Assembly (NCBI RefSeq): GCF_003334815.1
Contig: NZ_QOWO01000012.1
Length of the DNA stretch: 64,000 bases
Direction: 5' to 3' (one strand)
Origin: Escherichia coli
GTDB taxonomy: Bacteria > Pseudomonadota > Gammaproteobacteria > Enterobacterales > Enterobacteriaceae
The notes under the pieces are model-generated. The model was not told where the DNA came from and did no database searches. It saw only the letters and a program-made list of their open reading frames with translations. Positions 58,829-64,000 of this stretch are shown here, in pieces; the first letter of the stretch is position 1; each line of letters starts with the position of its first letter. The position numbers were made by a program, and so were the translations under genes.

Positions 58829-59614
58829 CTACGCGTCTTCCTGGGGAAGAATGATTTCAATTTGGCTGTCTTGTAAGCGTGATTTTAGCGCAGCGGGCGG
58901 CAGCTCGTCGGTAAAGAGCGCAGTGACCTGTGCCACGTTACCAATTTCAACCGCCGCCGAAGCATGATACTTAGTGTGATCGGCGACCAGCAGAATATTT
59001 CTCGCGTGCGCCATCATCGTTTTCACCACGTTAGCTTCGTTTACATCAAACTCCATCAACGCGCCATCGCTCTCAATCGCCCCAACGCTTGTTACCAGAT
59101 AATCAGCACGAAAATCAGCCACAAAGGACGCCGCTGAAGGGCCAATGATCCCGCTATTATGAGAGCGCAACGTACCGCCGGGCACCATCACTTCAAAGCG
59201 CGGGTTGTGGTAAAGAATATGCGCCACACGCAGGCTGTTGGTGATTATCCGCAAATGATTATGGTTAAGTAACGCCCGGGCAACATGCTCAACAGTCGTA
59301 CCAATGGTGATAAATATTGTTGAACCATCAGGAATATAGTCTGCCACCGCTTCGGCAATCGCTTTTTTTTCCTCGGTTTGCGAAACCTCACGCTGCTCGA
59401 ACGCCGTATTAACGACGCTGGAAGCCCGACCCGCGCCACCGTGATGGCGCGTAATCAGGCCTTGCTCGCTTAATTTACGAATATCCCGGCGGACCGTCTG
59501 CGTGGAGACATCCAGCAGATTTGCCAGCTCATCAATATTCATATACCCACGCTCGGCGATCAGCATGAGGAGTTGGTCGTGCCGCGGGTTACCGGTTAGT
59601 TCGGTAAGGCTCAT
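58829..59614 (-). CDS. yihW: DeoR-family repressor of the sulfoquinovose cluster (CsqR/YihW)
   Basis: 261 aa from MSLTELTGNPRHDQLLMLIAERGYMNIDELANLLDVSTQTVRRDIRKL. Confidence 0.88.
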   Translation of the reverse strand: MSLTELTGNPRHDQLLMLIAERGYMNIDELANLLDVSTQTVRRDIRKLSEQGLITRHHGGAGRASSVVNTAFEQREVSQTEEKKAIAEAVADYIPDGSTIFITIGTTVEHVARALLNHNHLRIITNSLRVAHILYHNPRFEVMVPGGTLRSHNSGIIGPSAASFVADFRADYLVTSVGAIESDGALMEFDVNEANVVKTMMAHARNILLVADHTKYHASAAVEIGNVAQVTALFTDELPPAALKSRLQDSQIEIILPQEDA

Positions 59615-59647
59615 GAAAATTCCTCGAAAAACCATCACCCTGGCATT

Positions 59648-60544
59648 TTATACAAAAAGTGACAAAAAAGATCGGGTTTGATCACAGTCAGGGATCCCGG
59701 CTCGTCCACCGGGACGTGTGCATTTTAACGCCGCTACACCGCTGGCGAAGCGGACTGACTCCGCTAAATCCCCACTTGTTGCCAGCGCCACCGCCAAAGC
59801 GCCGTGAAAAACATCACCCGCACCTGTGGTATCTACCACATCAACTTTGAAGGCCGGTTGATGCTGACGCCCACCATTTTCCAGCCAGTCGCAGCCTGCG
59901 CTACCCTGGGTCACATAGACATGACCATTTGTGAGCGTTTGTGCCTGTTTTAGCGCACTGGCCATCTCTTTCACGCCCGTTAAGCGCGCCAGACCCGGTT
60001 CTGAAAAGGCCGCGTGATCGCTTAATGCCACCAGCTCACTGATATCCTGCGGCGTAATGTCCCCGTCCAGAACGGTCATCACACCCGCCTGACGGGCCAG
60101 GGTGAAGGCTTTTTTAGCGCCGTCGTGCCAGCGTACATCTGCCAGCACAACATCCCACTGAGAGAAATCAATTTCCTCCAACCACTCTGCGTCAGGCAGC
60201 AGATCCGGGCTGGGGTAGTTAATGATTATCCGCTCGCCTTTGGTATCCACCATGATGGCGGATTGCGAAGATTTCGCCTGGTTATACCGTTTGGTGTAAC
60301 GGGTGTTAACGCCCCAGGATTCCAGCTCTGCCAGCAGGCTGTTGCCCGTGTCGTCATCACCTACGCGACCAATAAAATCGACCTGCGCCCCCAGCCTTGC
60401 CGCCGCAACCGCTGCCGTCGCCGCTGGCCCGCCACCAACTTCCGTATAATTTCTCGCCACGTATTTACCGCTCTCCGTCGGTAACCCTTCCACGTAATAG
60501 ATGCGATCCATCACGGTTATACCTACACAAGCAACACGAATCAT
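59648..60544 (-). CDS. yihV: PfkB-family sugar kinase (6-deoxy-6-sulfofructose kinase)
   Basis: 298 aa from MIRVACVGITVMDRIYYVEGLPTESGKY; GAGD motif (DTTGAGDVFHGA). Confidence 0.9.
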   Translation of the reverse strand: MIRVACVGITVMDRIYYVEGLPTESGKYVARNYTEVGGGPAATAAVAAARLGAQVDFIGRVGDDDTGNSLLAELESWGVNTRYTKRYNQAKSSQSAIMVDTKGERIIINYPSPDLLPDAEWLEEIDFSQWDVVLADVRWHDGAKKAFTLARQAGVMTVLDGDITPQDISELVALSDHAAFSEPGLARLTGVKEMASALKQAQTLTNGHVYVTQGSAGCDWLENGGRQHQPAFKVDVVDTTGAGDVFHGALAVALATSGDLAESVRFASGVAALKCTRPGGRAGIPDCDQTRSFLSLFV

Positions 60545-60711
60545 GGTCATTCCTTAAACATTTTGGGATGCGTTCATTTTAATTTCACCAATTGTTTAAA
60601 AAGTGACGGCTGTCAATTTTTTGACGATAAATTACAAATACGATCAAAAACAGACAAGCAAAGCATGTCATAAATGACAAAAAGTGACATCACTGTATTC
60701 AGGAGAGGGTT

Positions 60712-61608
60712 ATGGCAGCAATCGCGTTTATCGGTTTAGGACAAATGGGTTCGCCAATGGCGAGCAATTTATTGCAGCAAGGGCATCAACTTCGCGTCTT
60801 TGATGTGAACGCCGAAGCTGTGCGGCATCTGGTAGACAAAGGTGCGACTCCCGCCGCCAACCCGGCGCAGGCCGCTAAAGATGCCGAATTTATCATTACC
60901 ATGTTGCCGAATGGCGATCTGGTGCGCAACGTGTTGTTCGGTGAAAACGGCGTTTGCGAAGGCTTATCTACCGATGCGCTGGTCATTGATATGTCCACCA
61001 TCCATCCGCTGCAAACCGATAAATTGATTGCCGATATGCAAGCCAAAGGCTTCAGCATGATGGATGTTCCGGTAGGCCGTACTTCTGCAAATGCCATTAC
61101 CGGTACTCTGTTACTGCTGGCTGGCGGCACCGCTGAACAAGTTGAACGTGCCACACCGATCCTGATGGCGATGGGCAGTGAGTTGATCAACGCTGGCGGT
61201 CCGGGCATGGGGATCCGCGTTAAGCTCATCAACAACTACATGAGCATCGCGCTCAATGCGCTTTCGGCAGAAGCCGCCGTTTTGTGCGAAGCCCTGAATC
61301 TTCCCTTCGATGTTGCCGTCAAAGTGATGAGCGGTACCGCCGCCGGTAAAGGTCACTTCACCACTTCCTGGCCAAACAAAGTCCTCAGCGGAGATCTTTC
61401 TCCCGCCTTCATGATCGATCTTGCCCATAAGGATCTTGGCATCGCCCTTGATGTCGCCAACCAGCTGCATGTGCCAATGCCGCTGGGGGCCGCCTCACGG
61501 GAGGTTTATAGCCAGGCGCGCGCAGCGGGTCGCGGTCGCCAGGACTGGTCCGCCATTCTGGAACAGGTCCGTGTCAGTGCCGGGATGACTGCCAAAGTAA
61601 AAATGTAA
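60712..61608 (+). CDS. yihU: NAD(P)-dependent 3-sulfolactaldehyde reductase (beta-hydroxyacid dehydrogenase family)
   Basis: 298 aa [21 protein letters not shown] Rossmann motif. Confidence 0.9.
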
Positions 61609-61631
61609 CGACTGGATAAAGGAATAAATGA

Positions 61632-62510: not shown

Positions 62511-62526
62511 GATGAGGATAAAAGGA

Positions 62527-63768
62527 ATGAAATGGTTTAACACCCTAAGCCACAACCGTTGGCTGGAACAGGAAACCGACCGCATCTTTGATTTTGGTAA
62601 AAATTCCGTAGTGCCGACTGGTTTTGGCTGGTTAGGCAATAAAGGGCAAATCAAAGAAGAGATGGGCACCCATCTGTGGATCACCGCTCGTATGTTGCAC
62701 GTTTATTCCGTTGCTGCGGCGATGGGTCGACCTGGCGCTTACTCGTTGGTTGATCACGGTATCAAAGCCATGAACGGCGCACTGCGTGATAAAAAATATG
62801 GCGGCTGGTATGCCTGCGTGAATGACGAGGGCGTGGTGGATGCCTCCAAACAGGGCTATCAACACTTCTTTGCTCTGCTGGGTGCCGCCAGCGCCGTCAC
62901 AACGGGTCACCCGGAAGCGCGCAAGCTGCTCGATTACACCATTGAAATTATCGAGAAATATTTCTGGAGCGAAGAAGAGCAGATGTGCCTGGAATCCTGG
63001 GACGAAGCCTTCAGCAAAACCGAAGAGTACCGCGGCGGCAATGCCAATATGCACGCGGTGGAAGCTTTCTTGATTGTTTATGACGTCACTCACGACAAAA
63101 AATGGCTGGATCGCGCGATTCGCGTGGCTTCCGTGATTATCCACGACGTCGCCAGAAATAATCATTATCGCGTTAACGAACACTTCGATACCCAGTGGAA
63201 TCCGCTGCCGGATTACAACAAAGATAACCCGGCGCATCGCTTCCGCGCGTTCGGAGGTACACCAGGCCACTGGATCGAATGGGGCCGTTTAATGCTGCAC
63301 ATCCATGCTGCCCTGGAAGCCCGTTGCGAACAACCACCAGCATGGCTGCTAGAAGATGCCAAAGGTCTGTTTAACGCCACCGTGCGCGATGCCTGGGCAC
63401 CCGATGGCGCGGACGGGATTGTTTATACCGTTGACTGGGAAGGAAAACCGGTGGTCCGCGAACGTGTACGTTGGCCTATCGTCGAAGCAATGGGTACGGC
63501 CTACGCGCTCTACACCGTCACTGGCGATCGCCAGTATGAAACCTGGTATCAAACATGGTGGGAGTACTGCATTAAGTACCTGATGGACTATGAAAATGGT
63601 TCCTGGTGGCAGGAGCTGGATGCGGACAATAAGGTCACCACCAAAGTCTGGGACGGCAAACAGGATATTTATCACCTGCTGCATTGCCTGGTGATCCCGC
63701 GTATCCCGTTAGCGCCCGGCATGGCTCCAGCGGTTGCAGCGGGTCTGCTGGATATTAATGCGAAATAA
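62527..63768 (+). CDS. yihS: Sulfoquinovose isomerase (AGE-family)
   Basis: 413 aa from [23 protein letters not shown]; ORF track starts 5 codons upstream. Confidence 0.9.
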
Positions 63769-63783
63769 CTGATCTGAAAATAG

Positions 63784-63880
63784 GGTGCGGGTTTTCCCCT
63801 CTCCCTAACCCTCTCCCCAAAGGGGCGAGGGGACCGTCCGGTGCAGTTTTTGGGTTTGACATCAGCCTCACGGGAGGCTG
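63784..63880. repeat. GC-rich intergenic palindromic element (boxC-like) plus hairpin
   Basis: ttttcccctctccctaaccctctccccaaaggggcgaggggac and CAGCCTCacggGAGGCTG; family assignment from memory only. Confidence 0.4.
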
Positions 63881-63905
63881 TATGTCGTTAATTAAGGTGC
63901 CTTGT

Positions 63906-64000
63906 ATGCAAATCACCAATATGCATTGCAGTGGACAGACCGTTTCACTTGCCGCGGGGGATTATCACGCGACCATTGTGACCGTCGGTGCTGGTCTGGC
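63906..64000 (+). CDS. yihR: Aldose-1-epimerase family protein, N-terminal fragment; runs off the window end
   Basis: ATG at 63906 after RBS-like aaggtg; MQITNMHCSGQTVSLAAGDYHATIVTVGAGL; follows yihS as in K-12. Confidence 0.55.
   Translation, partial: MQITNMHCSGQTVSLAAGDYHATIVTVGAGL

Follow-up and report, generated by a model that had tools for sequence, protein, structure and literature searches.

The known sulfoquinovose (yih, sulfo-EMP) gene cluster at the edge of a 64-kb stretch of Escherichia coli DNA

Positions 58829-64000 of the window (the whole 64,000-nt stretch of Escherichia coli DNA analysed here) contain csqR (yihW) and yihV on the minus strand, followed on the plus strand by yihU, yihT, yihS and the first 31-39 codons of yihR. 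Genes were placed from a listing of open reading frames together with the RefSeq annotation of genomes whose DNA matches at 100% identity; all of the yih reading frames are intact, with no internal stops. The names and order given to yihW, yihV, yihU, yihT, yihS and yihR in a first-pass annotation are correct, as the DNA matches the annotated E. coli K-12 cluster, and the start of the locus as given there, 58829, is exactly the final base of the csqR stop codon. When 58600-64000 was aligned to E. coli K-12 MG1655, the only difference found was a single non-coding base at window position 60691: genes, order, orientation and spacers are shared with the MG1655 yih cluster (b3879-b3884), and the readable part of yihR is identical. 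Because this sole SNP is non-coding, the regulator and the four enzymes encoded in full each show 100% identity to their K-12 counterparts, and the strong divergence from the K-12 enzymes that the first-pass annotation had named as grounds for refutation was not found. The GC content of the cluster (0.51-0.555) is typical of E. coli, and nothing in its composition points to a recent arrival from a foreign source; a search of 57000-64000 against Rfam at permissive thresholds returned no RNA families. Long open reading frames on the opposite strand within the genes, such as 62632-63270 (minus strand, 212 aa), were rejected as mechanical; they are unannotated in the RefSeq records examined.

YihV (59648..60544, minus strand, 298 aa), a sulfofructose kinase of the PfkB/ribokinase family, is identical at all 298 positions to PDB 7AG6, entitled "Sulfofructose kinase", and contains the sulfonate triad K27-N109-R138 that replaces the RRS phosphate triad (residue list from PMC8006165). 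The NADH-dependent 3-sulfolactaldehyde reductase YihU (60712..61608, plus strand, 298 aa) scores 603 bits against the NCBIfam equivalog NF012005 (sulfolactaldehyde 3-reductase; cut-off 348) and matches PDB 6SM7 over its full length, with R123 (backbone), N174 and S178 present. YihT (61632..62510, plus strand, 292 aa), the class I sulfofructose-1-phosphate aldolase, matches PDB 7AG1 over its full length and retains the Schiff-base Lys193 as well as R253, S226 and S227 (PMC8006165). Sulfoquinovose isomerase, YihS (62527..63768, plus strand, 413 aa), which also makes sulforhamnose, matches both PDB 2RGK (E. coli YihS) and 7AG4 over its full length, with the catalytic His248 and the sulfonate pocket Arg55-Gln362-Gln379 in place (PMC8006165). 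Every residue that PMC8006165 lists for the sulfonate pockets and for catalysis is present in the enzymes of the window. The roles of regulator, kinase, reductase, aldolase, isomerase and epimerase previously assigned to these genes hold, with five proteins identical to those of K-12 and four matching crystallised enzymes at full length. An NCBIfam equivalog exists for YihU only; CsqR, YihV, YihT and YihS match only neighbouring family models (GlpR-like, ribokinase, tagatose-bisphosphate aldolase and mannose isomerase, respectively) at scores below the cut-offs, so these four were identified by their identity to K-12 and PDB proteins. The Salmonella enterica YihS and YihT structures (PDB 2AFA, 7AG4, 7AG7 and 1TO3) also align at full length and share the same catalytic and sulfonate-pocket residues, but they score lower than the E. 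coli entries (565 vs 646 bits and 926-930 vs 993 bits) and are thus orthologues and not identical proteins.

The regulator gene, csqR (58829..59614, minus strand), encodes a 261-aa DeoR-family repressor of the yih genes and was placed from the RefSeq annotation of identical DNA and from its K-12-identical sequence. Its product matches only the DeoR/GlpR family in NCBIfam, every match falling under the equivalog cut-off. CsqR is assigned to the cluster as a DeoR-family repressor whose gene adjoins the sulfo-EMP genes; that it binds DNA and responds to sulfoquinovose is taken from the literature. Met1 and an alternative internal start at Met25 (codon 59540-59542), which gives the short form CsqR-s, are both present, and CsqR-l and CsqR-s forms have been described (PMC10991401). 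The csqR promoter/operator region (59644..59685), delimited by 10-mer counts, conservation and the literature, overlaps the 3' end of yihV and carries the first copy of the 10-mer AAAAAGTGAC (59654-59663). This block is kept at 16-17 of 20 positions in a short form of the cassette that is otherwise ~65% identical. The csqR transcription start has been mapped 27/28 nt upstream of the ATG, corresponding to ~59641/59642, and both a CRP site and CsqR binding have been reported for the yihV/W region (PMC5816610, PMC12608037).

Between yihV and yihU lies a 167-nt divergent control region (60545..60711) serving yihV on one side and yihUTS on the other, described here from motif scans, conservation and the literature. 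Within it are found the palindrome AAAAAGTGAC-GGCT-GTCAATTTTT (60598-60621), a conserved block that is retained in the short cassette (60618-60655), a second palindrome, ATGTCATAAATGACA (60665-60679), and a third copy of AAAAAGTGAC (60679-60688). The 64 kb contain three exact copies of the 10-mer where 0.16 would be expected, and these fall only in the two regions for which CsqR binding has been reported. With one mismatch allowed there is no enrichment in the window (8 copies vs 5.1 expected), so the exact copies alone are informative. Copy 1 and the core of copy 2 are retained in the ~65%-identical short cassette; copy 3 is not conserved there, which counts against an operator function. By our own reading of the sequence, the AAAAAGTGAC repeats may be putative CsqR operator elements that overlap the promoters. 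CsqR is said to have been footprinted by Shimada in 2019; no consensus for the CsqR operator was found in the accessible literature. CsqR has been shown to bind the yihV/yihU spacer and to be released by sulfoquinovose and sulforhamnose (PMC8006165, PMC8249747, PMC12608037), and yihU transcription starts have been mapped to -15, -25, -35, -62/-63 and -82/-92, all within 60545..60711 (PMC5816610). A scan for the sigma-70 consensus found no promoter in either spacer, and its one site, fewer than in shuffled sequence, lies within the yihV coding sequence. The lack of a consensus site in either spacer suggests that the promoters are weak or activator-dependent, and their positions are taken from the literature alone. 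Terminator-like sites occur at chance level and all inside coding regions, and the scans lend no independent support to promoters or terminators. The spacers between yihU, yihT and yihS are 23 and 16 nt long with no terminator-like site between the genes, an arrangement that fits a yihUTS operon.

The yihS-yihR spacer contains a copy of the G/C-rich triplex-motif repeat known as BoxC, PIT or "TMECO" (63796..63831, minus strand), which reads CCCTCGCCCCTTTGGGGAGAGGGTTAGGGAGAGGGG on the minus strand and is the reverse complement of TMECO no. 21, located at 4,070,452-4,070,487 of MG1655 (PMC4666352, Table 1). The consensus of this intergenic family, CCCTCNCCC-N3-6-GGGNGAGGG-N3-GGGNGAGGG, has ~23 copies in K-12 (PMC4666352). 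The repeat is dispersed, occupying a median of 14 places per genome, and the copy in the spacer belongs to this family. Folding of the spacer RNA also yielded a hairpin with a 7-bp G/C-rich stem, CAGCCTC-ACGG-GAGGCTG (63863..63880, plus strand; z-score -2.6), which abuts the K-12-annotated yihR start codon from upstream; it has no T run after it and was not called by the terminator scan. Binding of RNA polymerase has been reported at the yihS/R spacer (PMC5816610). The 5' end of yihR (63882..64000, plus strand), the gene that would encode the sulfoquinovose mutarotase of the aldose-1-epimerase family, was placed by annotation and is cut by the window edge. Its ATG is set at 63882 in the K-12 annotation (308 aa) and at 63906 by PGAP (300 aa), and the 31 residues readable from 63906 match positions 1-31 of the aldose-1-epimerase profile NF011719.

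The two closest genomes, FORC 064 and Z1323HEC0011, share every base of the window from 57723 to 64000, and so the whole cluster, and differ from it at only three positions in 46000-64000. In both, yihR, yihQ, yihP, yihO and the porin gene ompL come next, intact, with no internal stops and identical in the two. The first-pass annotation had predicted that yihQ, yihP and yihO would lie beyond position 64000; this is borne out in these two genomes, outside the window itself, and we infer that the window's own genome likewise carries an intact yihQPO-ompL segment downstream. The downstream block from yihR to ompL was detected in 4010 of 5426 genomes, and yihS with the start of yihR in 4005-4017; the matching counts fit the prediction. 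Clusters that are incomplete or disabled past this point, for example by an insertion sequence in yihQ or a deletion of the transporters, do occur: in strain SWYHX138.261ft yihQ contains an IS5, and of the 4010 genomes that carry the block, 129 (~3%) lack 80% contiguous coverage of it. That the pathway is non-functional for such a reason here is nonetheless highly improbable given the intact genes of both closest genomes.

Two forms of the yih cassette have been distinguished in E. coli, a long one that includes yihS, yihR and yihQPO-ompL and a short one comprising yihTUVW only (PMC12608037). With yihS and the start of yihR present, the window is, by its gene content, the long, sulfoquinovose-inducible form, which in K-12 is induced at least 32-fold on sulfoquinovose (PMC12608037). 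The long form is found in ~74% of complete E. coli genomes, and the remaining genomes have the short one. The short cassette, seen in E. coli Nissle 1917 and many B2/ExPEC strains (PMC12608037), shares the chromosomal neighbourhood, the divergent core of regulator and kinase facing reductase and aldolase, and the non-coding blocks matching window 59644-59685 and 60618-60655, but lacks yihS, yihR, yihQ, yihP, yihO and ompL. In strain S3 its core is followed by a Zn-dependent alcohol dehydrogenase gene and two MFS transporter genes. The short cassette shows no induction by sulfoquinovose (PMC12608037). As ~1327 E. coli genomes carry a short cassette at the equivalent position (see also PMC12608037), the locus might be taken for this sulfoquinovose-unresponsive form, or for a paralogous sugar-acid cluster resembling yih. 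The short form, however, has only ~65% DNA identity and has neither yihS nor yihR, whereas the window matches K-12 and contains yihS and the start of yihR; the K-12 alignments rule out such an identity, the probability of which is negligible. A variant of the long cassette, exemplified by strain LR-62-2, has the same sulfo-EMP gene order and is ~95% identical to the window, but has an extra TauE/SafE-family gene (a putative sulfite/sulfonate exporter) between yihR and yihQ, and a yihS-yihR spacer of 67 nt compared to the 137 nt, with BoxC, of the window. The TauE/SafE gene is absent from the two closest relatives of the window.

The sulfo-EMP pathway of the E. coli K-12 yih cluster was reportedly described by Denger et al. 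in 2014 (Nature 507:114; see also PMC8006165 and PMC12608037). By analogy, sulfoquinovose or its glycerol glycoside would be imported by YihO and released by the GH31 sulfoquinovosidase YihQ, the genes for both of which lie outside the window, beyond 64000. YihR would interconvert the sulfoquinovose anomers, and YihS would turn beta-sulfoquinovose into sulfofructose and, as a side product, sulforhamnose. Following ATP-dependent phosphorylation by YihV, sulfofructose-1-phosphate would be cleaved by YihT, via a Schiff base at Lys193, to dihydroxyacetone phosphate, which would enter central metabolism, and sulfolactaldehyde, which YihU would reduce with NADH to 2,3-dihydroxypropanesulfonate for excretion, probably by YihP. 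The DeoR-type repressor CsqR is expected to bind cooperatively at the yihV/yihU spacer and at its own promoter region and to be released by sulfoquinovose and sulfoquinovosyl glycerol, and more weakly by sulforhamnose, with cAMP-CRP presumably adding catabolite control. Growth on sulfoquinovose, excretion of dihydroxypropanesulfonate and induction by sulfoquinovose have been shown in K-12 (PMC12608037, PMC6278857).

A different main role, as a second, lac-independent pathway of lactose catabolism in which the effect of YihW depends on the carbon source, would account for the reports that lactose strongly induces yihT, yihS and yihV, that yihT has a lactose-specific promoter and that the gene content resembles that of a lactose cassette of Bacilli (PMC5816610). 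It is very unlikely to hold in place of sulfoquinovose use: when purified, the enzymes act specifically on sulfosugars, show no activity on the analogous intermediates of glycolysis and have dedicated sulfonate pockets (PMC8006165), the residues of which are all present in the proteins of the window. Lactose is reported to be no effector of CsqR in gel shifts (PMC10991401), and on sulfoquinovose the genes of the long cassette rank with those most strongly induced (PMC12608037).

Window 58829-64000 is almost certainly the known E. coli sulfoquinovose (yih, sulfo-EMP) gene cluster, and nothing was found to speak against this identification. From this analysis it is based on gene content, intactness, identity of the proteins to those of K-12 and the presence of the published functional residues; enzyme activities, CsqR and CRP binding and transcription starts are drawn from the literature. 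Judged on sequence, chance cannot account for a 6-kb match at 100% identity. The first-pass annotation rightly called the locus described and not new: the cluster is K-12-identical except for one base, and its occurrence here adds no new biology. The same annotation took the genes to be as characterised in K-12, which stands for the proteins; the DNA is not that of K-12 itself, as it carries the common natural allele at 60691.

Position 60691 is a C in the window and an A in K-12. It precedes the yihU start codon by 21 nt, falls among the transcription starts mapped for yihU and is 3 nt away from one of the putative CsqR operator repeats. Exact matches to the C allele were found in 2405 genomes and to the A allele in 351, the latter being, among the matches listed, mostly K-12 laboratory derivatives. 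The C is the allele common in nature, the A that of laboratory K-12. All regulatory work on the yih cluster has been done in the K-12 laboratory lineage. It is conceivable, though unlikely, that the A arose as a derived change in that lineage and that, in addition, the BoxC repeat contributes to the structural variability of the cassette. This variability comprises the long form, the short form, and the presence or absence of the TauE-family gene. If the K-12 A is derived, natural isolates such as this one would depart from the K-12 model in how they express yihUTS, either at the basal level or on induction.

Few organosulfur compounds in the biosphere are as abundant as sulfoquinovose, a plant sulfo-sugar, and the yih cluster is the textbook E. 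coli route for its use. The value of the present assignment is in annotation: the genome would be recorded as having the sulfoquinovose-inducible long cassette in place of the divergent short one, identity to crystallised proteins allows full confidence in annotating its enzymes, and its regulatory spacer has the common natural allele at 60691 and not that of K-12.

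In the ORF listing, positions 58829-64000 of the window hold six large ORFs, two on the minus strand and after them four on the plus strand, of which only the last is truncated; none has an internal stop. A megablast search with window positions 58000-64000 against 5,426 complete E. coli genomes found full-length matches at 100% identity, and gene coordinates were carried over from the RefSeq annotation of one such identical genome, FORC 064: csqR (yihW; 58829-59614) and yihV (59648-60544) on the minus strand, and yihU (60712-61608), yihT (61632-62510), yihS (62527-63768) and yihR (from 63906, truncated by the window edge) on the plus strand. 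This is the arrangement proposed in the first-pass annotation, and its coordinates were exact. The yihR start is placed at 63882 in the K-12 annotation and at 63906 by PGAP, the K-12 version being 24 nt longer. Two further ORFs could extend upstream: csqR from a GTG at 59638 rather than the annotated 59614, giving 269 aa, and yihS by 15 nt, from an ATG at 62512 rather than 62527. A second, shorter form of CsqR is made from Met25 (PMC10991401), and its start codon is present at 59540-59542.

Window positions 58600-64000 align without gaps to K-12 MG1655 and differ at one base. Because this sole difference, at 60691, is non-coding, CsqR, YihV, YihU, YihT, YihS and the readable N terminus of YihR are the K-12 proteins, and two independent checks, against solved structures and against NCBIfam, agree. 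YihV is identical at all 298 residues to the full-length sulfofructose kinase of PDB 7AG6, and full-length matches were obtained for YihU to 3-sulfolactaldehyde reductase (6SM7), YihT to sulfofructose-phosphate aldolase (7AG1) and YihS to the YihS structure 2RGK. Every sulfonate-pocket and catalytic residue reported by Sharma et al. (PMC8006165) was found: R55, Q362, Q379 and H248 in YihS, K27, N109 and R138 in YihV, K193 and R253 in YihT, and R123, N174 and S178 in YihU. YihU also scores above the NCBIfam equivalog for sulfolactaldehyde 3-reductase (603 bits, cut-off 348). NCBIfam has no equivalog for CsqR, YihV, YihT or YihS, whose matches were to related families and below cut-offs, and these four are therefore identified by their identity to characterised proteins. 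The earlier interpretation as a sulfo-EMP cluster of the K-12 type is thus supported, as is its description as known rather than new, the system being fully characterised and the proteins identical to the reference. Judged by its sequence, the locus is the textbook sulfoquinovose system.

The window's cluster would run the K-12 pathway, with YihQ, YihR, YihS, YihV, YihT and YihU acting in turn; its steps were reportedly described by Denger et al. in 2014. YihQ frees sulfoquinovose from glycosides, the anomers are equilibrated by YihR, and YihS turns beta-sulfoquinovose into sulfofructose, with sulforhamnose as a second product; sulfofructose is phosphorylated by YihV, and YihT cleaves sulfofructose-1-phosphate to dihydroxyacetone phosphate and sulfolactaldehyde, which YihU reduces to dihydroxypropanesulfonate for export, so that one C3 half alone enters metabolism (PMC8006165, PMC12608037, PMC10991401).

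A 2025 study described two forms of the E. coli cassette, a long form, ompL-yihOPQRSTUVW, strongly induced by sulfoquinovose in K-12, and a short form, yihTUVW, with no response to sulfoquinovose (PMC12608037). The yihS-yihR part of the window was present in 4005-4017 of the 5,426 genomes and the yihR-ompL block in 4010, and about 1,327 carried a csqR-yihV-yihU version of only ~65% identity; these counts reproduce the published split. The window cassette is of the long form, since yihS and the yihR start are present and the sequence is identical to K-12. In strain S3 this csqR-yihV-yihU version adjoins typA, and the genes after it encode an aldolase, a Zn-dependent alcohol dehydrogenase and two transporters of the MFS type. 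The short-cassette locus at NZ_CP107142.1 2867685-2879005 (~65% DNA identity to the long form, directly beside typA) runs regulator, kinase, reductase, aldolase, then Zn-dependent alcohol dehydrogenase and two MFS transporters. The short cassette is therefore more than the long one with genes removed; these features point to a separate cluster that may serve another substrate.

The best match over window positions 39001-64000 is strain Z1323HEC0011, with no differences over 57723-64000; FORC 064 differs over 46000-64000 at only three positions (48173, 48212 and 49960), in the fdoG/fdoH region. Both of these closest genomes carry identical, intact yihR, yihQ, yihP, yihO and ompL downstream, and by analogy the predicted presence of yihQ, yihP and yihO beyond 64000 is well supported. 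About 3% of genomes holding the yihR-ompL block show disruptions, such as IS5 in yihQ. In strain SWYHX138.261ft (NZ_CP091839.1 3131403-3139166) an IS5-family transposase interrupts this sulfoquinovosidase gene, so that the first step of the pathway is predicted to be knocked out in a natural strain. In some E. coli lineages a TauE/SafE-family (sulfite/sulfonate exporter) gene lies between yihR and yihQ, as at 2369-3244 of the long-cassette locus NZ_AP027576.1 4710460-4720993; the long cassette of these lineages is ~95% identical, whereas K-12 and the window's close relatives are without the gene.

The yihS-yihR spacer, 67 nt in a TauE/SafE-bearing lineage and 137 nt in the window, is polymorphic: at least 80% of it was found in only 2,248 genomes, against about 4,000 with the long cassette. 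It contains a BoxC/PIT/"TMECO" triplex-motif repeat (63796-63831; identical to no. 21 among the MG1655 copies listed in PMC4666352), of a family dispersed at a median of 14 sites per genome, and beside it a G/C-rich hairpin (63863-63880) abutting the K-12-annotated yihR start. Elsewhere in the window, a markedly AT-rich stretch at ~54500-56000 (GC 0.365-0.38 vs ~0.52 in the flanks) lies around yiiF, the CopG-family gene yiiE and a fragment annotated as a pseudogene, immediately upstream of fabY.

A terminator scan found no terminator-like site in the 23-nt yihU-yihT and 16-nt yihT-yihS spacers, and these short spacers fit a yihUTS operon diverging from yihV. CsqR binds cooperatively at the yihV/U spacer and the yihV/W junction and is released by sulfoquinovose and sulfoquinovosyl glycerol, and more weakly by sulforhamnose (PMC8006165, PMC8249747, PMC12608037). 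Published mapping gives CRP sites in the cluster as well as several transcription starts, the latter at -15, -25, -35, -62/-63 and -82/-92 for yihU and -27/-28 for csqR (PMC5816610). The 10-mer AAAAAGTGAC occurs in three exact copies in the 64-kb window, all on the plus strand (59654, 60598 and 60679), against 0.16 expected, a count reached in no shuffle. All three fall in the two regions of reported CsqR binding, and we hypothesize that they are CsqR operator elements. Together with a one-mismatch copy on the opposite strand, the 60598 copy makes up a 10-4-10 palindrome (60598-60621); the one at 59654 sits 13-22 nt upstream of the csqR start given in the literature, a position that would suit autorepression. 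Overall, the spacers share only 56-61% identity with those of the short cassette, but conservation reaches 16-18 of 20 positions in two blocks, one at 59644-59685 that includes the first copy and one at 60618-60655 over the yihU -62/-63 start region. The core of the second copy is kept in part in the short cassette, and the third is not conserved.

At 60691, the one position that differs from MG1655, the window has C where K-12 has A; the site belongs to the yihV-yihU spacer, 21 nt before the yihU start codon and 3 nt beyond a copy of the putative CsqR motif. With a 61-nt query, the C allele was matched exactly in 2,405 genomes and the A allele in 351; among the 25 matches listed of these 351, most are K-12 laboratory derivatives (MG1655, C600, J53, ME8067, ER1709 and MG1655-derived evolution lines). 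The A is taken as a K-12-specific allele of the promoter region, and the window thus comes from a natural-type strain closely related to K-12, not from MG1655 itself.
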